Counted from the stretch's first letter, positions 3,147 to 38,962 are shown. The stretch is DNA of 47,500 nt from Candidatus Thorarchaeota archaeon (GCA_048884965.1 JBHLQH010000025.1:1-47500); one strand, 5' to 3'. Notes: generated from the sequence alone by a model not told the origin. Made by a program: numbers and translations.

Positions 3147-3683
3147 CTAGCCTATTTTATCTCCAACGGACCAATATTGGGCATTCAGTGGGAGGTACAC
3201 AAAGAGATCTGCCTTGGACGCATCAAAGCGATCGTTTTCATCAAGGACCGACTCATCAATATGAACTGCTACCACTTCTGCGATGAACAAATCGTGGACT
3301 CCCACATTTACTATCTGAGTGGTCTTGCACTCTAGACTAATGGGACATTCGCCTATCATTGGAGCATCGACTTTGGACGCTGGGACGGCAGTCAACCCAC
3401 ACTCTTCGAATTTATCAAAATCCTTCCCGGACTTTGAGCCGCAGAACACTGCAGCATCGAATTGACCCTTTCCTGGAACATTCAGAACAAACTCTCCAGC
3501 ATCCTTAACAAGATCATAGCTATGACGATTGGGACGAATGCCTACTGCAATACTTGGAGGATTGCTGCAAATATTCGCAGCCCATGATAATGTGATGATG
3601 TTCGGTCTATCCTCCCCTCGTACACTGAGTAGTACGACTGGGCAAGGCACCAGAGCAGTCATTCCTTTCATTTCTTTTTTCAT
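3147..3683 (-). CDS. flavin reductase-like FMN-binding protein (flavoredoxin family)
   Basis: PCPVVLLS, NIITLSW, GEFVLNVP, CGSKSG...DKF, ECPISLEC, HDLFIAEV. Confidence 0.9.
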   Translation of the reverse strand: MKKEMKGMTALVPCPVVLLSVRGEDRPNIITLSWAANICSNPPSIAVGIRPNRHSYDLVKDAGEFVLNVPGKGQFDAAVFCGSKSGKDFDKFEECGLTAVPASKVDAPMIGECPISLECKTTQIVNVGVHDLFIAEVVAVHIDESVLDENDRFDASKADLFVYLPLNAQYWSVGDKIG

Positions 3684-10135: not shown

Positions 10136-11473
10136 CTAGGATTCAGGATGCCATTCAGTGGTAGAGTGTCGAAGTCCTGATGATAAGATTCCTGCAATGA
10201 TCAAGAGCATCCCTCCTATGAGAACCAAATCCATGAGTCGCAGCCCTTGAGCTAGCAACCAGCCCCCTCCAGTGGAACCTACTGCAAATCCCAGAATTCC
10301 TATGGTTTGAAGTATTGAAACAACCTCATCAGACCCTGATGTGTGGGAATGCTCATGGTCATGACTGGTAACTGAGAATGGATTCCCAGGTGCATGCCCC
10401 AAGAAATAGTGCTTGTGAGAATGGACTGTTTCTCTTGAAGGCGTGTTCTCCATGGCGGCATCATTTCTCGCGGGTTCGAGAAATCCCTCTGAAAGTCCCG
10501 CTAATGCCAGTAGTGATGTTAGAACAAGGAACGATGCTGCATAGGGATAGAAAATGACGATTGTACCTTTTGCAACAAGGCTCAAGGCAAGAGGTGCTAT
10601 GCTGCCGGATCTATCCACAAGTCTACCTGTATAGAGCTGTGACGCTCCCCATACAGCATCTCCAACGAGATATCCCAGTCCAATCAGGTCTAATGATATG
10701 CCATTCTCATTGATCATGATGGAGAGACCCGGTGTGTATATCCCATGAGAGAAGTCATAGAGGAGATAGATGCCAATGAGGATGATGAGATTTCTCGATA
10801 GTAGCGATCCAAGTAGGAATCGGGAGTGAGAATGACCATGATTCTTGTCTGTAGTAGTGACGCAGTAATCATCAATCTCCTTCAAAAATGGTAACAATGC
10901 TACCAGAAGAATGATGAAGCTGATAGATAGTATAGATCCAATCAGCATGATTGCCTGTGTCTGTGAAAGACCGTAGACCAGCTCTAACTGTCCTACTGCT
11001 ATTCCTGCAATGCCTTGACCTAGCGCAGAGCCCAAAAAAACTCCTGCAAGCAGTGTGCCAACAGACTCCCCGCGACACTCCTCGAAGCCTGATGACAGTC
11101 TGATGATAATGATTGCTAATAGTCCGGTTCCTGCTCCTTCACCAATGCGTGAGAGGAGTAAGAGGTCAGAAGATGTCGAGAGGGCAGTTGTTATGGTAAA
11201 ACATGTGATGAGCAATCCGCTAATCCCCAGGGCCGCCCTCTGATTAGAAAATAGTCGACTCAGGATGATAAGGCCCAAGACTTGACCAATTGATGATAAG
11301 GAACTGCCCCATGATATCAGTGACTCAGTTCCACCTAGATTGAGAATCTGAAATGGGAAGAGGAATCTCAGTATGCCCGCAGTAAGTCCCATGGTGAAGA
11401 CGATTAGGAACACATATCGTATAATCGGCTCCCTGAAGATGAGCCAGCTACTATCTTGATTCACCGTATCCAT
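10136..11473 (-). CDS. MFS transporter with His-rich loops
   Basis: ~12 hydrophobic segments, SRIGEGAG, GRLVDRSG motif A; HGHSH and HSHKH...HDHEHSH inserts. Confidence 0.85.
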   Translation of the reverse strand: MDTVNQDSSWLIFREPIIRYVFLIVFTMGLTAGILRFLFPFQILNLGGTESLISWGSSLSSIGQVLGLIILSRLFSNQRAALGISGLLITCFTITTALSTSSDLLLLSRIGEGAGTGLLAIIIIRLSSGFEECRGESVGTLLAGVFLGSALGQGIAGIAVGQLELVYGLSQTQAIMLIGSILSISFIILLVALLPFLKEIDDYCVTTTDKNHGHSHSRFLLGSLLSRNLIILIGIYLLYDFSHGIYTPGLSIMINENGISLDLIGLGYLVGDAVWGASQLYTGRLVDRSGSIAPLALSLVAKGTIVIFYPYAASFLVLTSLLALAGLSEGFLEPARNDAAMENTPSRETVHSHKHYFLGHAPGNPFSVTSHDHEHSHTSGSDEVVSILQTIGILGFAVGSTGGGWLLAQGLRLMDLVLIGGMLLIIAGILSSGLRHSTTEWHPES

Positions 11474-13661: not shown

Positions 13662-13745
13662 AATCTACACACAGATAGCAATATGTTAAATCAGTTGCTT
13701 TCTTTGTTCAAGGAAATGGACCTGCCTATTCAAGGAGGCTCTGTC

Positions 13746-14180
13746 ATGGATATTCGTGTGTTCGAACCTAGTGACATCAAAGATGCTGTCAAGCTCGCAA
13801 ATCTGTATGCATCATTCGATTCAGAGGTCAGCGAGGTAGATTTTCAACCTGCTTGGTCATTCCCTGAGGGATTCCTTATTGCCGATATCTGTGGACAGGT
13901 TGTGGGTTTCATTTTTGCATATCTGCGAGATGTTCCAAGCGAGGTATTGCATAGGTGGCATGCATCGAAGGTGGCTCAAATCGAGCTTCTCGTGGTCCAT
14001 CCCTCCTTTCGAGATCGGGATATTGGGGATAGGCTGTTGAGAAGACTACTTGATACACTAAAGGATGAGAGTGTCGACATAGTGCTTCTTCATTGTCCCA
14101 CGCAGTCAATCGAAGCGAAGAATCTCTATGACAAATATGGTTTCGAGGTTCGTGCCTATGCAATGAAGAAACGCCTCTAG
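13746..14180 (+). CDS. GNAT acetyltransferase
   Basis: LVVHPSFRDRDIG, A.NLYDKYGF; SD AGGAGG before ATG 13746. Confidence 0.85.
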   Translation: MDIRVFEPSDIKDAVKLANLYASFDSEVSEVDFQPAWSFPEGFLIADICGQVVGFIFAYLRDVPSEVLHRWHASKVAQIELLVVHPSFRDRDIGDRLLRRLLDTLKDESVDIVLLHCPTQSIEAKNLYDKYGFEVRAYAMKKRL

Positions 14181-14259
14181 AATATAAATCCTAGTTGATA
14201 CGATTATGCACAATCGTTCAAATCTCAGTAATTATATGGCTTCTTATCTTGTAGCAGAC

Positions 14260-14796
14260 ATGTCCTATGAAGAAGAAATCAGAACTTGGAGAAAAAAACG
14301 AGAAGCAGATCTGGCTGAAGGTATAATGATTGGAGATATCCTATGGTCTCCAGTTCCTGAGTCTGAGCGTGCCAATCTGAATCTGAATTTCTTTCCAATA
14401 GATCCAGCTTTCAAGTTCCATGCAAAACTAACTCTTCTAGAAGAGAAGAGAGAAAGGGTATTGACAAAGACAGATGGAACGCCAGCCAATCCCTTTCTTG
14501 AAACCGGTTACGTAGAATTCATGTATAGAAATGAGAATATCCGTTTGTTTATGGTCTTCGACGAACAAACAGACAGCTATTATGTCGGCTTTCGGGACTC
14601 TACATGTGGCAAAGAAAGCTATCCCAATGGACGTTTGTTGCGTATTGAAAGGGTTGATCAAGAACTGATAACTTTGGATTTCAATAAGGCATTCAACTTC
14701 GCCTGTGCATATAATGAGAAGCTTCCCTGTCCAATCACTCCTCAGGAGAATTGGCTAGATTTTCCTATTAGGGCCGGAGAGAAAAAATATCATTGA
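14260..14796 (+). CDS. DUF1684 family protein
   Basis: L.FFPIDP, FRDSTCGKESYPNGR, LDFNKAFN..CAYN...CPI.P..N.L...IRAGEK. Confidence 0.9.
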   Translation: MSYEEEIRTWRKKREADLAEGIMIGDILWSPVPESERANLNLNFFPIDPAFKFHAKLTLLEEKRERVLTKTDGTPANPFLETGYVEFMYRNENIRLFMVFDEQTDSYYVGFRDSTCGKESYPNGRLLRIERVDQELITLDFNKAFNFACAYNEKLPCPITPQENWLDFPIRAGEKKYH

Positions 14797-14920
14797 TGTT
14801 TTCATGTACTAGTATTGCTATAGCCTAAGGATTCAGACCAGTCTTCCGAATCTCCTAAGCAAAATCACTACAAAAAGCCCTCAGAATATATTTTAGGTCG
14901 AACTATATCCCATCTAGATT

Positions 14921-15523
14921 GTGGGGGCGATCGACACGCAAATTGATGCTGTACTACCGGAGTTCATCTTCATTGTGCTACTGGCTGTTGTCATAATATG
15001 GGTTACTATCTTGGCTGGAGCATTGACTCGAATGCAGCGATATGGCAGACTATCGACTGCTTTGTTTATCCTTGCATTCCTTGCAGCTATGGGGTCCGCA
15101 ATCAGCTTGGGGATAGAGCTGTTCTTTTCCGTAATCCTAGCAAACGAATCCCCACGTTTGACAACACTGCTCACCACATTATTGATGTTCTTGCTTGGCA
15201 TACCTAGCGGCTATATCGTGAAACATTATGGGGAAGATAGAGTAAAGGAAGAAGAGATTGCTCGCCACTTCGATAGAGCTACGAATGATGCATTTACTAT
15301 CGGCACGACACTTCAAATCATCGTTCTAACCCTCTTGACAAGTGGAGTTCTATCTGCAGATACTATGGCTGATTTATTATCTCTCTTTAGCTTGGTAGTG
15401 GTATCCCCGCTTATCATTTATGACCTGTCCTTCTTCTACCATATAAGAAGACACAAAGTGCACCTCTCTCAGGATGCACTGCTGGACAACCAAAACCGCT
15501 CGGATACAGGCGAAGACTCATAA
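14921..15523 (+). CDS. hypothetical multi-pass membrane protein
   Basis: about 5 hydrophobic segments; stop overlaps the mvhD pseudogene stop. Confidence 0.65.
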   Translation: MGAIDTQIDAVLPEFIFIVLLAVVIIWVTILAGALTRMQRYGRLSTALFILAFLAAMGSAISLGIELFFSVILANESPRLTTLLTTLLMFLLGIPSGYIVKHYGEDRVKEEEIARHFDRATNDAFTIGTTLQIIVLTLLTSGVLSADTMADLLSLFSLVVVSPLIIYDLSFFYHIRRHKVHLSQDALLDNQNRSDTGEDS

Positions 15524-15883
15524 TCGAATCGGATTCGGCCCGATCTTTCTGATTTCCTCGGCGAACTTGTTGATCTCGGTAGCGAACTTATCGCCTTAAG
15601 CTGCTGATACGAAGACCATCTTCACTCGGTCCTTGTTCATGCCCATCTGATCGACAAACTCTCTGGCAAAACGAACCCTTCTTTCTGCCCCCAGGTTCCC
15701 AGTCTTGAAAGCACAGTCGCCAGGATGACAGCCCACAACCAGCACACCGTCTGCCCCTTCTTGCAGTGCCTTCAGGATGAAATTGATGCGGGCGGTACAT
15801 GGCATGCGAATGATCCTCGAACTGGCGTCGTACTGCAACTTCATGGTCCCTGCGAGGTCGGAGGCTGCGTACATGCACTGCAT
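15518..15883 (-). pseudogene. mvhD: mvhD 3' remnant (codon 14 to end) with in-frame TAA and a 6-nt deletion
   Basis: aligns to 17008-17379; reads VSAA*GDKFATEINKF...NPIRL*; CTARLDINF is CTARINF; first 13 codons absent. Confidence 0.9.
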
Positions 15884-15916
15884 GTGTGAATAAAACTAGA
15901 ATTATATTACAAAATA

Positions 15917-16921
15917 GTGATGAGATATAGAGAAAACTGCAAGGCAAAATCGGAGGGGTCGATCAAATTGATTAAGAAAGTCTTGTGCAATGTGCTACTT
16001 ATCACATTGATATCAAGTCTGGTACTAGGATATTCGAATGGGTATGCTAACAAGCAGATACTATGTCCAGCAAATCAATCCAAGGATTTGAGCATAGATA
16101 ACATTCATTCAGATGAGATTGGCCCCTTAATGAAGTACTATTTGAGGAGGTATGCCCCTGACCGTGCACAGACACTTTCCAGTATCAATCTGTCAATATA
16201 CGCAGAGGACCCTGCAGGTGTTGATACCGTGATTATGATGTACTCTCATAATGTAGGTGATTGGAACAATAGCTCCATGATTACCCAAGATGTTGGCGAT
16301 TGGGTGAATCTCACCATGAACTGCAATCTGGAAGGTTGGTATGAAACGATAATTCCGGTTTCGAATATCTCTCAGCCCTATATGTGGTGCTCATATCTTG
16401 TAAAATATGCTGCCAACGATACACTGGGGAACTGGAGGGTCAGCCCTTTGTGTATCTACGTGTTCACACATTCTACTATAACAGCGGATTGGTTCGATAT
16501 TGAGTTATATGACACTCCAGACCTGTGGTACGTTGTTGGAACCACAAATCACACGGTCACATGGGATACAGCTCCAGATATTCATGGTCAATCAGGTTGG
16601 CCCTACAGTCTATATGAGGATGGACATCTCACTGAACTCTGGAGCTGGGGAGGCAGCATTACTATTGACGTGGATGACCTTGGTATTGGTGATCATATCT
16701 TCGAGTTGTACCTTCAGGTGGTCCAATCAAAGAATTCGGATACGGTAATGGTACACGTCGTAGAAGCACTTGAAGAAATACCATATGGAGTTTCCACCGG
16801 TGCTGTTGGACCCTTGACAGAAACAGCTACAGCAGAGTTCGACTTATTGACCCCTGTCCTTATTGTTGGTTCAGCATGTATTGCTCTCCTGATTGTTTGG
16901 ATGAAACGGAGAACTCGTTGA
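15917..16921 (+). CDS. cell-surface protein, beta-rich/Ig-like, with C-terminal TM anchor
   Basis: signal-like N-terminus, D..GVDTV, Y...ANDTLGNW, IDVDDLGIG.H, several N-x-S/T sequons, TM plus MKRRTR; exact start uncertain. Confidence 0.8.
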   Translation: MMRYRENCKAKSEGSIKLIKKVLCNVLLITLISSLVLGYSNGYANKQILCPANQSKDLSIDNIHSDEIGPLMKYYLRRYAPDRAQTLSSINLSIYAEDPAGVDTVIMMYSHNVGDWNNSSMITQDVGDWVNLTMNCNLEGWYETIIPVSNISQPYMWCSYLVKYAANDTLGNWRVSPLCIYVFTHSTITADWFDIELYDTPDLWYVVGTTNHTVTWDTAPDIHGQSGWPYSLYEDGHLTELWSWGGSITIDVDDLGIGDHIFELYLQVVQSKNSDTVMVHVVEALEEIPYGVSTGAVGPLTETATAEFDLLTPVLIVGSACIALLIVWMKRRTR

Positions 16922-17007
16922 GATGCATTGGCTCTCAATTGAATTCAGAGCCTTGGCTGCAACCCTGTCGCAAATTTGAACGCGTATGGGATGTGAACAA
17001 GTAATTC

Positions 17008-17418
17008 CTATAGTCGAATCGGGTTCGGACCAATCTTCCGAATCTCCTCGGCGAACTTGTTGATCTCAGTGGCGAACTTGTCACCCTCTGCGGCTGATAC
17101 GAAGACCATCTTGACCCTGTCCTTGTTCATGCCCATCTGGTCCACTAATTCCCTAGCGAAGCGAACTCTGCGCTCTGCCCCCAGATTACCAGTCTTGAAC
17201 GCGCAGTCACCAGGATGACAGCCCACAACCAGCACACCGTCTGCCCCTTCTTGCAGTGCCTTCAGGATGAAATTGATGTCCAAGCGGGCGGTACATGGCA
17301 TGCGAATGATCCTCGAACTGACGTCGTACTGCAACTTCATGGTTCCCGCGAGGTCCGACGCTGCGTACATGCATTGCATACAGCCGAACACTATGATATT
17401 CATGTCCTTCGGAGGCAT
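17008..17418 (-). CDS. mvhD: MvhD/FlpD [2Fe-2S] hydrogenase/heterodisulfide-reductase delta subunit (all-Cys form)
   Basis: FGCMQCMYAASDLAG, IRMPCTAR, GADGVLVVGCHPGDC...GN, VSAAEG; SD GTGGTG. Confidence 0.93.
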   Translation of the reverse strand: MPPKDMNIIVFGCMQCMYAASDLAGTMKLQYDVSSRIIRMPCTARLDINFILKALQEGADGVLVVGCHPGDCAFKTGNLGAERRVRFARELVDQMGMNKDRVKMVFVSAAEGDKFATEINKFAEEIRKIGPNPIRL

Positions 17419-17637
17419 TTGGTCTGCACCACTTACATTCCCAAAATCCAACCGCCATATATTCTTTGACATTGGGAAAAGGTCGCTGAGGACTTTTTGT
17501 AGACCTCAGCGCATGCAGTGTCTGACCTATCTCAGGGAGTGTGTTTCTCCTTACCGGTTGGTGAGTGAAACATGCATACTCTCTTCTCAATACTCCCATC
17601 GTTAATTAGATATCCCCCCAATATTGGAAGAAATCCC

Positions 17638-18462
17638 ATGAAAGATACTACTTCTTCTGTTTTTCATCATTGTAAAACTGCTGTTATTACTGGAGCATCA
17701 AGTGGTATTGGATTAGAGTATGCTAGACAACTTGCAGCAAGGAAGATTGACGTGATCTTACTTGCCCGTCGAAAGGACAAATTGGAAGAAATCTGTTTGA
17801 ATTTGTCAAATACTCATGACATTTCTGCATCATTTATTCCTGTAAATCTATCCAACATAGATGAAGTTCAGAATGTCTGTCAAGAGATTCTCAAGAAATC
17901 TCCCATTGACATTCTAATAAACTGTGCAGGGTTTGCGACTCGAGGTGAATTTACATCCGTATCATTGGAAACTCATTTTCAGATGATATCTCTTCATGTG
18001 AATTCCGCTGTCGCATTATGCCATTCTATCTTACCAACGATGCAAACACAAAACCGCGGAATCATCATCAATGTCGCATCAATTGGTGCGTTTACCCCAA
18101 CTCAAGATAATTCAATATACAGTGCGACCAAGTCCTTTCTTGTTGCGTTCTCTCAGAATCTGAACGTAGAATTGGAAGGTACGAATATAATCGTCCAAGC
18201 TGTATGCCCTGGTTTTACAAAAACCGAGTTTCATCATGTCGGTCACTTTTCTGATTTTGATGCATCCGTTATTCCTGAGAGACTATGGATGTCTGCGACC
18301 GATGTAGTGTCAACTTCTCTAGCAAAGTTGAAGAAAAACAAAGTAATTTTGATTCCCGGATTTAAAAATCGGTTGTTTCTAAGACTTCACCGAACGTTCC
18401 TAGTTCAACTATACATCAAATCACGGAGAAAAAAAGCCTTGGAGAAAAGTCAGTTAAAATAG
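17638..18462 (+). CDS. short-chain dehydrogenase/reductase (DltE-like)
   Basis: TGASSGIG, NCAG, NVAS, YSATK, CPGFTKTEF; AT-rich. Confidence 0.92.
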   Translation: MKDTTSSVFHHCKTAVITGASSGIGLEYARQLAARKIDVILLARRKDKLEEICLNLSNTHDISASFIPVNLSNIDEVQNVCQEILKKSPIDILINCAGFATRGEFTSVSLETHFQMISLHVNSAVALCHSILPTMQTQNRGIIINVASIGAFTPTQDNSIYSATKSFLVAFSQNLNVELEGTNIIVQAVCPGFTKTEFHHVGHFSDFDASVIPERLWMSATDVVSTSLAKLKKNKVILIPGFKNRLFLRLHRTFLVQLYIKSRRKKALEKSQLK

Positions 18463-18593
18463 ATGCACAAACTTCTTGGATGTTCTTCATGTGCTCATTG
18501 GCATGTACCGATCTGTTTCAGGAGTCTAAAGACGGTGAGTGACCTCTCTCGGCAACGTTCAACTCCCGTGTTCCACCCGATTCGTGGCTGGCA

Positions 18594-19034
18594 TCACCGC
18601 TTAGACTCAAGAATAGACTTCAGTGTTTGAAAATTGTTAGTGGCACCTAGTTTGATCATATGGGCTGCAAAGAACGCATGCGCCTTGAACGGCAAACCAT
18701 CATCCTTGACTTTTCCATTTAGCAAAATTCTAGTGCTTGTACCTATTGGTTCAAAGGAATACCTATAGGTAAAGGGAGTAGGTCCTGTTAGAGTTTTAAT
18801 TGTTAGAATCTTGTTCTTTGTGTATTCAGTCACTCGATAGATATTCTCCACTCTCTTCTTGCCAATAACTCGCTGTATTCTATATTTACAACTCAGTTCA
18901 TCATCACAATCATCTATTCGTTCTACGCCTACTACTTCAGAATTCCAGCGAGGGTCGTTTTCTGTATCTGATACATACTCAAAAACATCAGTAATAGGAC
19001 AATTGATCAGAATACTAATCTCAAAATTTATCAT
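18594..19034 (-). CDS. SRPBCC/polyketide cyclase-like protein
   Basis: I.INCP..DVFEYVSD.EN.PRW, C-terminal helix LKSILE. Confidence 0.85.
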   Translation of the reverse strand: MINFEISILINCPITDVFEYVSDTENDPRWNSEVVGVERIDDCDDELSCKYRIQRVIGKKRVENIYRVTEYTKNKILTIKTLTGPTPFTYRYSFEPIGTSTRILLNGKVKDDGLPFKAHAFFAAHMIKLGATNNFQTLKSILESKR

Positions 19035-19661
19035 TTTTTCAACTCTGTATATTTCTGATGGGAAGGACTATCCCTTCTGATTCCTAGTGTGAATCAGAAC
19101 CTGATTCTGTGACTTCCTCTCTAGCTATTTTTGCTCCCAACTTCTGTTGTATCATTTTCAAAATATTATGCGGCCCTTGATCGTTCATCACTCGGTTTCT
19201 AGTATATCCGGTCTTCGAATTGATTTTCATTTCTTCCATTTGTCATATCCTGCAAAAATGAGTATAGATTAGCAAGTCAATTAGGCTGATATCACTAAAA
19301 AGAACAGATAAAACAAAAACCAGAAAATACAGTCTGGATTCAGTAGTACTTGATGCTAATCTATTTCTTCCTTTATGCGGTCATTCTATTCACCTAATGC
19401 CTAATAAACTTGGACCTAGAGCCGGAAATCTCTAATGGACGCCCCTTTGGATGCAAGATGGTAGATATTGAGCACTTTCTACAATCAAGAAGCAAGTTTC
19501 TGAAGGAATAAGTGAACCTTCTTGGCAACTACAAGTATGCGACCTATCTCTGAGTATATTCTACATAATAATGCTGAATAATCAGCTAGAACTAAATGGG
19601 GGGTTAGTTTCAGAATAAATGGTATTAATTATCTTGAACTACTATCCAATGGTGATACGTT

Positions 19662-19994
19662 ATGGATACAAATGATACAAACGATATCGATGGAAAGCTC
19701 ATCCGCTGGAACGATATTTTTGATCAGCTGGTCATTGATGTACAGACCTTGATCAAGGACTTTTCAGGGATAATCGACTTTCCTGTTCCGTTAGCGATAC
19801 TAATGTTTGCCATTGGAGGCGCATCATTTGCTGCAACGATACTACTCAGTGGGGATTTGCTTGTCATTGTCTATGTCTTCTTCCTCATGTGTATTCTAAT
19901 TGTTTCGGGGATATTGATTCTCCGGCATTGGTATACAATGAAGACACGATATAATCGACTCTTTGCTATGCAAAAAGCATTGGAGTCTACTTAG
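19662..19994 (+). CDS. two-TM membrane protein
   Basis: two hydrophobic helices; TATA-like TATTAATTA upstream. Confidence 0.7.
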   Translation: MDTNDTNDIDGKLIRWNDIFDQLVIDVQTLIKDFSGIIDFPVPLAILMFAIGGASFAATILLSGDLLVIVYVFFLMCILIVSGILILRHWYTMKTRYNRLFAMQKALEST

Positions 19995-20005
19995 GGGGTG
20001 CCAAG

Positions 20006-20302
20006 ATGGCTCCCCGCCGCGCTCCTGATGTCATTGCTCTTGAATTATTAAACTGTGTAGAAGAGAATGGAGAAGCGTCCAAGTGGGACCTTATCAAGGT
20101 CCTTGGAAATGAAACACAGTTCATACTATGGATTGAGAGGTTCTTCTTACCTGAGAAAGTTCTTACGGAACGCCGAGATGGAAGACGATACTACTACAAG
20201 AAAACGGAGCGGGGCGAGCAGTTCCACAAGCTACTGAAAAGCAGCAGTTTGATCAAGCTGTTTAGTAGCGTTAGTGGACGACGGTTGAAATTAGAGTCAT
20301 AG
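20006..20302 (+). CDS. winged helix-turn-helix protein
   Basis: RR...IALELL, wing RRYYYKKTERG; SD GGGGGTG. Confidence 0.7.
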   Translation: MAPRRAPDVIALELLNCVEENGEASKWDLIKVLGNETQFILWIERFFLPEKVLTERRDGRRYYYKKTERGEQFHKLLKSSSLIKLFSSVSGRRLKLES

Positions 20303-20404
20303 CCTTTGAAGGAATTCAATCTGCACCACTTACCGAGTCTAAATCCAACCACCATATATTTTCTGACACTAAGAGAAAGATCGCCGAGGCCTCCAGACTC
20401 AACG
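20297..20404 (-). repeat. diverged copy of the mvhD promoter, SD and first ~6 codons (5' remnant)
   Basis: aligns to 17400-17511 at offset 2897; 40/49 identical over 20320-20368; ATG has become ATT. Confidence 0.85.
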
Positions 20405-37936: not shown

Positions 37937-38962
37937 CTAGCCCATAATCAATCGAACGATATCAATTACAAGAACATCCTTAGCAGATGTAATCTCTTGC
38001 AAATCGATTCGTGAAATATATCGTATGTACTCCTTCAAAGCTTGCGATATGTTAGATTGATGTGATTTCTGCGCATCGAGGTTTGTTTGGAGATCGATTC
38101 CAATCTTGCTGAATTCTTCTTGAACATCCAGAAAATCCTCTCCATCACAGGACATACCGAGTTCTAGGTCAGATAATATCGCAAAACCATGGGCAGTATA
38201 CCAAAGGTCTTCTAGATCGACCATCGACACTTCATAATCGTACCCCTCACGGATTTGCGAACTAGCAAGCGGTAGTAATCTCTCAACTTCCTGCTTCCTC
38301 AGCTCAAGAACCTTGTCAACACGCTTCGCTAGGACTTCGTAGTCTGCCATCTTTTCAATATCAAGCCCAATAGTAGTTCCGCCTCTATCAATCTGAGCAG
38401 ATACTTGATTGATTACAAGCTCATGAGCATCCTTCTCAGAGCTTGAAGGTATCGCCCAAAGCACCCTTAGGAACTCCAATGGATCAGTTTCTGATAGTCC
38501 TACCCACTGAAGACCCAGAGTCGATAGCAAGTTCTGAAGAACTAAAATATGTAGCCAGTGGGCTTCATACGCTTCTGGTGTGGGAATAGTTCCACTGATG
38601 CTAGAATCGATCGTCCCTTTCTCCAAGAGGTCCAAAACCATCCTCATTCTCTCTCTATAGGGCTCATCGTCACTATCCGACTCGGCGGATTCTTGCACGA
38701 AGAGCACCACGGCAGATTTGCTAGATATAGGAGGCCATCCTCCACCTTCAATCAGTATTCTATACCCTTTTTTCGGGATGACGGTCAAGGGTCCATCGTA
38801 GTCATCGTATGGATTGTAGCTAATAGCCAGAGACTCTGGGTCCTTTTCAAAATCCCTGTACTTGATAGAAAGAAGAATTTTCTGGTTTCGCTTATCAATC
38901 ACAATGAGATGCAGAAGCCTTTGCTCATCGAAGGCTGTCCGAGGGCTGTGCGTACTATCCAT
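37937..38962 (-). CDS. hypothetical protein: longin-like N-terminal domain plus uncharacterised helical C-terminal domain
   Basis: pattern LLHLIVID/ILLSIKY/LTVIP/YRILIEG/AVVLFV/helix; C-terminal QIDRGG...LDIE, LW.TAHGF.IL..L. Confidence 0.6.
   Translation of the reverse strand: MDSTHSPRTAFDEQRLLHLIVIDKRNQKILLSIKYRDFEKDPESLAISYNPYDDYDGPLTVIPKKGYRILIEGGGWPPISSKSAVVLFVQESAESDSDDEPYRERMRMVLDLLEKGTIDSSISGTIPTPEAYEAHWLHILVLQNLLSTLGLQWVGLSETDPLEFLRVLWAIPSSSEKDAHELVINQVSAQIDRGGTTIGLDIEKMADYEVLAKRVDKVLELRKQEVERLLPLASSQIREGYDYEVSMVDLEDLWYTAHGFAILSDLELGMSCDGEDFLDVQEEFSKIGIDLQTNLDAQKSHQSNISQALKEYIRYISRIDLQEITSAKDVLVIDIVRLIMG

Follow-up and report, generated by a model that had tools for sequence, protein, structure and literature searches.

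How does a gene come to lie among pieces of its own former copies, with unrelated genes packed between them? The question is raised by a 47.5-kb contig (C25) from a metagenome-assembled genome (MAG) of Candidatus Thorarchaeota, a group of Asgard archaea, analysed here over its entire length and called the window, which carries one intact mvhD, a small redox gene, and three partial copies of it. Comparison with relatives shows that mvhD is a recurrent point of insertion and replacement, the scars bracketing nt 27–42 of the gene (codons 10–14). A hotspot is thus supported, and a nuclease followed by repair, preferred over an integrase, is the most likely agent. We put at roughly 0.5 the probability that repeated part-replacement of mvhD by an RNA-guided TnpB-like nuclease, with cargo genes hitch-hiking, has left the locus as a pile of scars.

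mvhD Copies in the Window

The source MAG comprises 4.09 Mb in 99 contigs (95.7% complete, 7.2% contamination). Positions within mvhD are numbered along the 411-nt gene, whose full-length product has 136 aa. F denotes the full, intact mvhD and P a displaced 3′ copy; L-numbers denote loci and G-numbers genomes. The window contains the following copies:

17008–17418, minus strand: intact mvhD, the working copy F (136 aa; PF02662, MvhD/FlpD family)
15518–15883, minus strand: displaced 3′ copy P (codons 14–136, with TAA, a two-codon deletion and a ~128-nt conversion tract identical to F)
20290–20393, minus strand: 5′ remnant of an earlier mvhD (promoter region and codons 1–9, start codon changed from ATG to ATT)
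14804–14863, minus strand: third, short mvhD remnant, older than P (last ~16 codons, stop codon and ~12 nt beyond)

On the minus strand the order is 5′ remnant, four passenger genes, the relic of a TnpB-like tail (see below), promoter, F, a surface-protein cassette, P, a membrane-protein cassette, the short remnant, a DUF1684 gene and a GNAT gene. A first-pass annotation, made from the sequence alone, had described an intact copy, a 3′ copy from codon 14 to the stop and a decayed promoter/first-codon copy, and this layout proved accurate by repeat search, alignment and Pfam. The repeat finder paired 15520–15883 with 17010–17379 (87–94% identity) and 17393–17480 with 20290–20377 (73% identity), in agreement with a three-way alignment; the full gene (17008–17418, minus strand) and the partial open reading frame (ORF) both fall in PF02662. 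The 5′ remnant aligns over 103 nt (20290–20393 against 17393–17495) with a score of 95, the maximum in 300 shuffles being 31, and is recognisable as far as codon 9; a pattern search recovers it with 5 mismatches, where 1 match is expected in shuffles of all loci. The third remnant (14804–14863) scores 62 against a shuffle maximum of 34. Because it lies beyond the gene of a 200-aa membrane protein (14921–15523), that gene forms a second cassette.

P lacks codons 1–13 and has lost two more codons (gap over codons 45–47). The remainder differs from F at 39 codons, 36 of them synonymous, two missense (V33A, L91F) and one a GAG→TAA change; the divergence amounts to 12% of sites, nearly all synonymous. 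By this comparison both F and P are once-functional alleles, as the first-pass annotation had held, and the decay marks that it listed (lost start, TAA, 6-nt deletion) reappear codon by codon as the ATT start, the GAG→TAA change and the two-codon deletion. Decay is unequal: 5 of 9 codons of the 5′ remnant carry non-synonymous changes versus 3 of ~120 in P. Along the downstream array, P lies near the full gene and is almost intact; of the third remnant, farther away, 48 nt are left.

A Fixed Breakpoint across Thorarchaeota

A search of 40 relatives returned full mvhD genes followed by open partial copies, all starting at residue 13–14. The comparison was extended to reference genomes and metagenomes, with 66 loci taken from each. 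Of the loci that hold a full copy, about 40% have between one and five additional 3′ pieces downstream: 24 of 57 in genomes and 17 of 45 among metagenome contigs. The complete pieces (n = 28) start at nt 38–42, a few slightly earlier, and are preceded by ~18 unrelated flanks with no common sequence upstream of the boundary. Starts of the short pieces fall mostly at nt 250–373, and nearly all 3′ pieces end at the stop codon. Mirror-image 5′ remnants, consisting of the promoter and first codons, lie upstream of the full gene in the window and in L052, L053, L081 and L103; in these five loci they end at nt 27–36, with one such match expected in shuffled sequence.

Erosion is one-sided, ~42 pieces having kept their 3′ end versus ~5 their 5′ end. 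Partial copies begin with different codons (ATG, GTG, ATA, CTG, TCG or AGG) and junctions scatter by up to 3 nt; therefore, the junctions appear to be inexact. The junction scatter, the one-sided erosion and the many unrelated flanks meeting at one boundary together indicate that the break is made at one place. Within a cargo family the junction is inherited, and in arrays of several pieces the younger fragments lie nearer the full gene. The flanking core blocks are conserved (upstream, Hdr-like, acyl-CoA dehydrogenase and cupin genes; downstream, FTR1, HD-domain, Lrp-like and other genes); all sequence between mvhD and these blocks is variable, and identical cargo families occupy different array positions. 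The integration hotspot that the first-pass annotation had placed near codons 7–13 is thereby supported as a recurrent one, with a fixed breakpoint at codons 10–14. Variable cargo with a shared endpoint is the opposite of the simple tandem triplication that it had named as the contrary outcome.

In relatives, 3′ pieces are mostly found without 5′ pieces. Together with the unequal decay seen in the window, this favours an origin of the 5′ remnant and P as scars of separate events. A single event, with one mvhD split by a ~4.4-kb segment as in the first-pass annotation, could also account for both: homing could copy from the donor a fragment that had already decayed.

Two further observations concern the position of mvhD. 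In L070, L071, L074 and L147 the usual downstream block (FTR1, HD and others) lies upstream and inverted; therefore, mvhD also marks a rearrangement breakpoint. A partial mvhD (nt 39–391) also occurs away from the usual locus, on an 8.5-kb contig (L109:3406-3758; G001:C83), beside genes for ribosomal protein L3/L4 and pyruvate formate-lyase.

History of the Displaced Copies

Ten F/P pairs differ by 418 synonymous versus 74 non-synonymous codon changes, and states that are rare among full copies occur 39 times in P versus 3 times in F. These counts show that the P copies are relics of alleles, selected for most of their divergence and drifting since. Of 13 complete P copies, 10 have kept an open frame and 3 carry stops or indels. 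We considered whether the partial copies might be working truncated genes starting at Met14, and rejected this possibility in view of the excess of rare residues (39 to 3), the broken copies (3/13) and a codon 14 that is often no start codon.

Long segments in which F and P are identical alternate with diverged ones, a mosaic that shows gene conversion between the copies. When a tree was built from the 3′ parts, the grouping followed genome lineage and not cargo; this clustering and the blur left by gene conversion made the tree fail as a guide to the incoming copy. A comparison of L145 with L165 for the same purpose failed as well, the two being too distant.

A TnpB-like Gene and Guide-like Sequences Matching the Breakpoint

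What could make the break? In 16 genome loci and several metagenome contigs, a gene for a ~600-aa TnpB/Cas12f-like protein lies directly upstream of mvhD. These genes form cluster 15 (e.g., L095:8036-9829). The protein matches a Cas12f1-like TNB domain as well as Cas12f/TnpB profiles and structures, and RuvC-I (GIDLG), RuvC-III (NADKNGAINI) and a zinc ribbon (CxxC...CxxC) are conserved in 15/15 sequences. The window retains the following traces of such an element:

17504–17571, minus strand: relic of the 3′ tail of a TnpB-like element, the TnpB gene itself being lost
17571–17562, minus strand: tail-relic motif GTTTCACTCA, a family motif described in PMC10691335
17530–17522, minus strand: tail-relic scaffold end ATAGGTCAG
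17521–17504, minus strand: tail-relic guide-like stretch, its first 11 nt being the reverse complement of mvhD nt 38–48 of a CAG/TGT-type allele
17419–17503, minus strand: 5′ leader region of F, with a hairpin (17510–17485) overlapping the guide-like end and a TATA-like box at ~17466–17455

Non-coding tails upstream of mvhD carry the motif GTTCACTCA, reported for Asgard TnpB loci (PMC10691335), and end in ACAGGTCGG. A survey of 111 loci found a conserved tail ~100 nt upstream of mvhD in 42, many of them without the TnpB-like gene. A loose search of the window's genome for further tails gave chance-like matches only, besides the window's own.

In tails of the main type, the next 14 nt form the reverse complement of mvhD nt 31–44 (TTC GGC TGC ATG CA), a segment that spans the breakpoint. 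Among 36 non-identical loci this 14-mer is near-invariant except at the positions facing nt 31, 33, 36 and 39; these coincide exactly with the polymorphic codon positions of mvhD, with similar base frequencies, and the match past 14 nt is random. The guide-like sequences avoid the gene next to them. In the own-allele test none of the 36 perfectly matches the neighbouring gene, and the mean own-allele mismatch of 2.75 is above all 20,000 random re-pairings; 29 of 38 guides perfectly match another genome's allele.

A second guide type (window, L050, L051, L149, L156) matches nt 38–48 and differs from its own gene at synonymous sites. The relic guide of the window mismatches its own F at nt 39, 45 and 48, and P at nt 48 only. 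In L053, a separate tail and guide go with the displaced 5′ remnant; this old guide fits the present gene at 13 of 14 positions and the new guide fits the old displaced 5′ remnant, an arrangement that looks like reciprocal targeting.

Three side observations belong to this part of the locus. Codons 14–18 vary non-synonymously among full copies (MQCCY in L086, L099 and L107; NQCMY in L061; QQCMY in L081; MQCAYS in L095), and the displaced copies in those loci keep the common MQCMY; such residue variation just after the breakpoint would fit escape from a nuclease. In L094, L095 and L101 (between the TnpB-like gene and mvhD) and in L111 (8768-8931, 9691-9854), the scaffold end and guide-like unit occurs twice, in tandem or ~0.9 kb apart, resembling a two-unit mini-array. 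Finally, in ~10 loci a gene for a protein of 1,450–1,960 aa (cluster 25; e.g., L051:2658-7790, L114:1423-7311) is divergently placed beside the TnpB-like gene; no significant Pfam domain was found in this giant neighbour, and a Cas1 domain was not detected.

Proposed Mechanism

The loci show that in Thorarchaeota DNA has inserted repeatedly at one point of mvhD, carrying its own copy of the remainder of the gene. Because the rest of the gene arrives with the insert, mvhD stays whole. The previous 3′ part (from nt 40), more rarely the promoter and first codons, is displaced and then decays, and small passenger genes (toxin-antitoxin pairs, HEPN, GNAT, short-chain dehydrogenase (SDR), transporters, surface proteins) lie between the mvhD copies, which also swap sequence by gene conversion. 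We hypothesize that the break is made by the RNA-guided TnpB-like nuclease encoded upstream of mvhD, whose guide of 11–14 nt would target the alleles of other strains across the breakpoint and not the adjoining one. After an exchange of DNA, a sensitive allele would be cut, and repair from the chromosome with the nuclease-linked, resistant allele would copy the resistant part of the gene together with neighbouring cargo, on either side. Cleavage by the protein, the position of the cut and the copying of cargo during repair are the steps we infer from the comparison of loci. In the window, the nuclease gene appears to have been lost, leaving the tail relic at 17504–17571; because the genome is without an intact TnpB-like gene, the array would no longer be driven and would be frozen and decaying.

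A number of points weigh against this mechanism. The canonical RuvC-II Glu position is Gly in 15/15 TnpB-like proteins, so that the site would be either rearranged or dead; rearranged RuvC sites are known in TnpB relatives (PMC10691335). A guide match of 11–14 nt is short for TnpB. TnpB usually cuts at the far end of its target, which here would be at ~nt 24–30, and the sharp starts at nt 40 are not derivable from the model. The relic guide of the window mismatches P at the first guide position, and an intact TnpB-like gene was not found in the window's genome. No intact TnpB-like gene was found to have 5′ fragments upstream of it. RNAalifold, run on 34 tails, gave no consensus fold, because sequences without the gene disturbed the alignment. 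The displaced copies cluster by lineage, their tree pointing to neither a donor nor a direction of transfer, and the case for a nuclease is built from comparison throughout.

We further speculate, at somewhat less than even odds, that the locus represents a natural RNA-guided "allele drive" in Thorarchaeota. A TnpB-like nuclease would be guided against rival synonymous alleles of mvhD, sparing the linked one, and would drag passengers, among them toxin-antitoxin, defence and surface proteins, into integron-like, integrase-free arrays.

Alternative Explanations

Pure homologous recombination seems unlikely. Cassettes would pop out as circles between the direct mvhD repeats and re-enter any mvhD by single crossover, without a site-specific enzyme, and the codon-14 boundary would go back to a single partial duplication that founded the arrays. 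The mosaic conversion tracts show active recombination between copies, recombinases were not found, copies cluster by lineage and the junction is inherited inside a cargo family. A single founding duplication is hard to reconcile with ~18 unrelated flank families at the same boundary, without common upstream sequence, with 5′ remnants that stop at the same place and with the strongly one-sided erosion; the guide-like 14-mer and its avoidance of the own allele would be left unexplained.

Alternatively, the TnpB-like protein might have lost its nuclease activity and regulate mvhD under RNA guidance (TldR-like), the scars having arisen by another route without its involvement. Exapted, inactivated TnpBs are common (PMC10691335), Gly stands in place of the canonical RuvC-II Glu in 15/15 proteins, and the guide adjoins the very gene that it matches. 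A regulator should, however, match the adjacent gene, and 0/36 guides match their own allele perfectly, the own mismatches exceeding those of all permutations. The Asp residues of RuvC-I and RuvC-III and the zinc ribbon are conserved, and the matched segment coincides with the scar breakpoint, all of which makes a dead regulator improbable.

Classical site-specific integration, the reading of the first-pass annotation, we regard as slightly less probable again. Small non-autonomous elements would use mvhD as an attachment site with a tyrosine or serine integrase encoded outside them, comparable to phage 21/e14 at icd or to accreted cis-mobilizable elements (CIMEs). Traits of this kind are present: the full gene is intact, restored by an element-borne 3′ part, the insert lies between direct repeats of target sequence, partial copies extend from codon 14 through the stop, and tandem accretion and a sharp boundary are seen. 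Archaeal elements are also known in protein genes, where they form arrays (PMC6563490).

The enzyme is what is missing. Pfam revealed no recombinase among cargo proteins, in line with the earlier remark that none is encoded in the locus. The further suggestion of a recombinase acting in trans found no support: PF00589, PF00239 and PF01797 had 0 matches in the window's genome at 95.7% completeness (controls positive), the latter two serving also as the search for a partner transposase. Across 61 family genomes, PF00589 is present in 24, never on an mvhD contig, and it was not found in the array-bearing G003, G007, G017 and G022. No mvhD was found on IMG/VR viral contigs, and no contig with a terminal overlap was seen that could represent a circular form. 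Junctions appear to be inexact, as the variable first codon of partial copies suggests, and the cargo side is without a conserved arm. An attachment-site mechanism is therefore disfavoured by the ~3-nt scatter of junctions and by the TnpB-type guide-like sequence, which matches the breakpoint instead and avoids its own allele.

Two recombinase-related candidates were dismissed. DNA folds of the boundary and the gene 3′ end, examined for an integron attC site, gave z-scores of −1.3 to +1.0, none significant, and no IntI integrase was found next to the insertion point. The cluster-20 cargo protein (see below) has a predicted fold without a recombinase-like structural match and a weak Csa3-like match only.

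A local duplication in tandem with later deletions, or an assembly artefact from mixed strains, is very improbable. The 7.2% contamination of the MAG and the many contigs of other assemblies that break at mvhD would fit it. Against it stand the 12% divergence between F and P, nearly all of it synonymous, the return of the layout with other cargo in dozens of assemblies made independently, and the occurrence of the same cargo families at different array positions.

Comparison with Known Systems

The closest parallel to the favoured nuclease-and-repair reading is offered by the WHO elements of Torulaspora/Lachancea yeasts, whose nuclease gene sits beside the conserved housekeeping gene FBA1 and whose nuclease cleaves the sensitive alleles of that gene (Coughlan et al. 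2020, PMC7282813). Repair replaces the FBA1 3′ end with a resistant version and pushes the old 3′ end downstream, and 3′ fragments with one common start position accumulate in arrays and decay (PMC7282813). The mvhD arrays likewise consist of displaced fragments with a common start, the younger nearer the full gene. Allele specificity is shared in silico only, the guides sparing the linked mvhD allele and matching others. A candidate for the linked nuclease gene is the TnpB-like gene directly upstream of mvhD in the 16 genome loci and the metagenome contigs, the window having the tail relic only. Unlike in the yeasts, the candidate nuclease at mvhD would be RNA-guided and is encoded upstream of the gene, outside the cassettes; the cargo consists of unrelated passenger genes, scars occur on the 5′ side too, and the archaeal host is without meiosis.

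Phage 21 and e14 in the Escherichia coli icd gene are prophages with their own tyrosine integrase, an exact core and a site near the 3′ end of the gene. At mvhD, too, insertion occurs inside a protein gene, the replacement 3′ end is mostly synonymous and the old 3′ end is left as a pseudo-copy. Unlike at icd, 90% of mvhD is replaced, an integrase was not found and multi-cassette arrays are formed. Chromosomal integron arrays are similar in their ordered, repeat-bounded modules of 1–4 genes without their own recombinase and in the frequency of toxin-antitoxin genes. They differ in that IntI and an attC hairpin were not found at mvhD, the repeat is a 371-nt coding fragment and the cargo lies in both orientations.

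Archaeal integrated elements occupy 3′-distal parts of protein genes and form tandem arrays (Krupovic et al. 2019, PMC6563490). They are multi-gene, with attachment sites mostly <25 bp, and are integrase-mediated or flanked by casposon target duplications (PMC6563490). A protein-coding target, direct repeats and the re-use of one site are features in common with these elements (PMC6563490); the mvhD repeat, by contrast, measures 371 nt and starts at codon 14.

The TnpB-like protein shares the RuvC-I/III Asp residues and the zinc ribbon with TnpB/omega-RNA systems of IS200/IS605-type transposons and with the aCas1-associated TnpB groups of Asgard archaea (Altae-Tran et al. 2023, PMC10691335). 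The conserved non-coding tail with GTTCACTCA, followed by a short variable guide-like stretch, is also as in Asgard TnpB loci (PMC10691335). Unlike in TnpB systems, no transposon flank supplies the guide-like stretch, which instead matches alleles of the adjacent host gene while avoiding the linked allele. Moreover, a TnpA or Cas1 partner was not found here, and the RuvC-II Glu is not in its usual place.

A full-text literature search (mvhD as an integration site, mobile elements of Thorarchaeota, TnpB in Asgard archaea or with mvhD) found no description of such a system. If the proposed mechanism is true, TnpB-family nucleases would gain a natural role beyond maintaining their own transposon, namely in the competition among alternative alleles of a host gene, gene capture being a side effect. 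Asgard archaea without detectable integrases would have a route to build arrays of defence and accessory cassettes, and a compact RNA-guided enzyme with naturally documented target and escape variants would become available. For annotation, the locus accounts for assemblies that break at mvhD and for the truncated mvhD "genes" called there.

Cargo and Other Features of the Window

The remaining features of the window are as follows:

20006–20302, plus strand: passenger ORF of 98 aa, its 3′ end running into the 5′ remnant; no Pfam/PADLOC match
19662–19994, plus strand: passenger ORF of 110 aa with two predicted membrane helices; in Pfam, ThrE only, sub-threshold
18594–19034, minus strand: passenger SRPBCC/polyketide-cyclase-like protein (PF10604, E 1e-12)
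17572–18462, plus strand: passenger SDR (PF00106, E 1e-45)
15917–16921, plus strand: cassette 1 cargo, a 334-aa membrane-anchored surface protein
14921–15523, plus strand: cassette 2 cargo, a 200-aa membrane protein
13683–14796, plus strand: DUF1684 (14206–14796) and GNAT (13683–14180)

The labels earlier given to the cargo hold for the SDR and SRPBCC genes, both of which have Pfam support; the ORFs called winged helix-turn-helix (the 98-aa ORF), two-transmembrane and surface protein have no significant Pfam match. Members of the surface-protein family of cassette 1 also follow the full mvhD directly in L093 and a short 3′ remnant in L133, and the membrane-protein family of cassette 2 adjoins a complete partial copy in L181. 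In relatives, DUF1684 and GNAT lie inside the variable tract behind mvhD, GNAT being the commonest gene directly after the mvhD stop codon.

Across the loci, recurrent cargo includes VapB/VapC, a ribbon-helix-helix plus DUF3368-PIN pair (PADLOC candidate system PDC-S70), HEPN/AbiV, GNAT, an MFS transporter, a deaminase, a CHAT domain, a Ras-like GTPase and many membrane and surface proteins; SDR genes and transporters also recur among the passengers between copies. The commonest first cassette after the full gene is a divergent pair (clusters 24/20; e.g., L061:7695-8918, L050:10465-11722), which encodes a ~100-aa protein and a ~230-aa predicted tandem winged-helix protein (predicted local distance difference test score, pLDDT, 85).

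Other repeats were noted away from mvhD. Two direct repeats of 118 nt, 93% identical and 8.7 kb apart (L200:2182-2299 and 10998-11114; G000:C17), were considered as element ends and rejected: they flank genes for a 1,572-aa surface protein, FMN reductase, ThiI and a PP-loop ATPase, with no recombinase and no Rfam match. Three direct copies of ~111 nt, 84–88% identical, lie within 3 kb (L201:735-845, 2845-2954 and 3498-3608; G000:C83), each beside small ORFs and without an Rfam match.

An ahcY-type case, comparable in outline, occurs in the window's genome (L199:2535-3803 and L199:4344-4559, equal to G000:C3:36534-37802 and 38343-38558). The last 72 codons of the gene for S-adenosylhomocysteine hydrolase recur 541 nt downstream of it, in a copy that is 87% identical, differs mostly synonymously, carries one TGG→TAG change and ends exactly at the stop codon. 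An ORF for a 72-aa membrane protein lies between the gene and this 3′ copy. In many relatives, S-adenosylhomocysteine hydrolase is represented by two adjacent pieces that meet at residue ~352.

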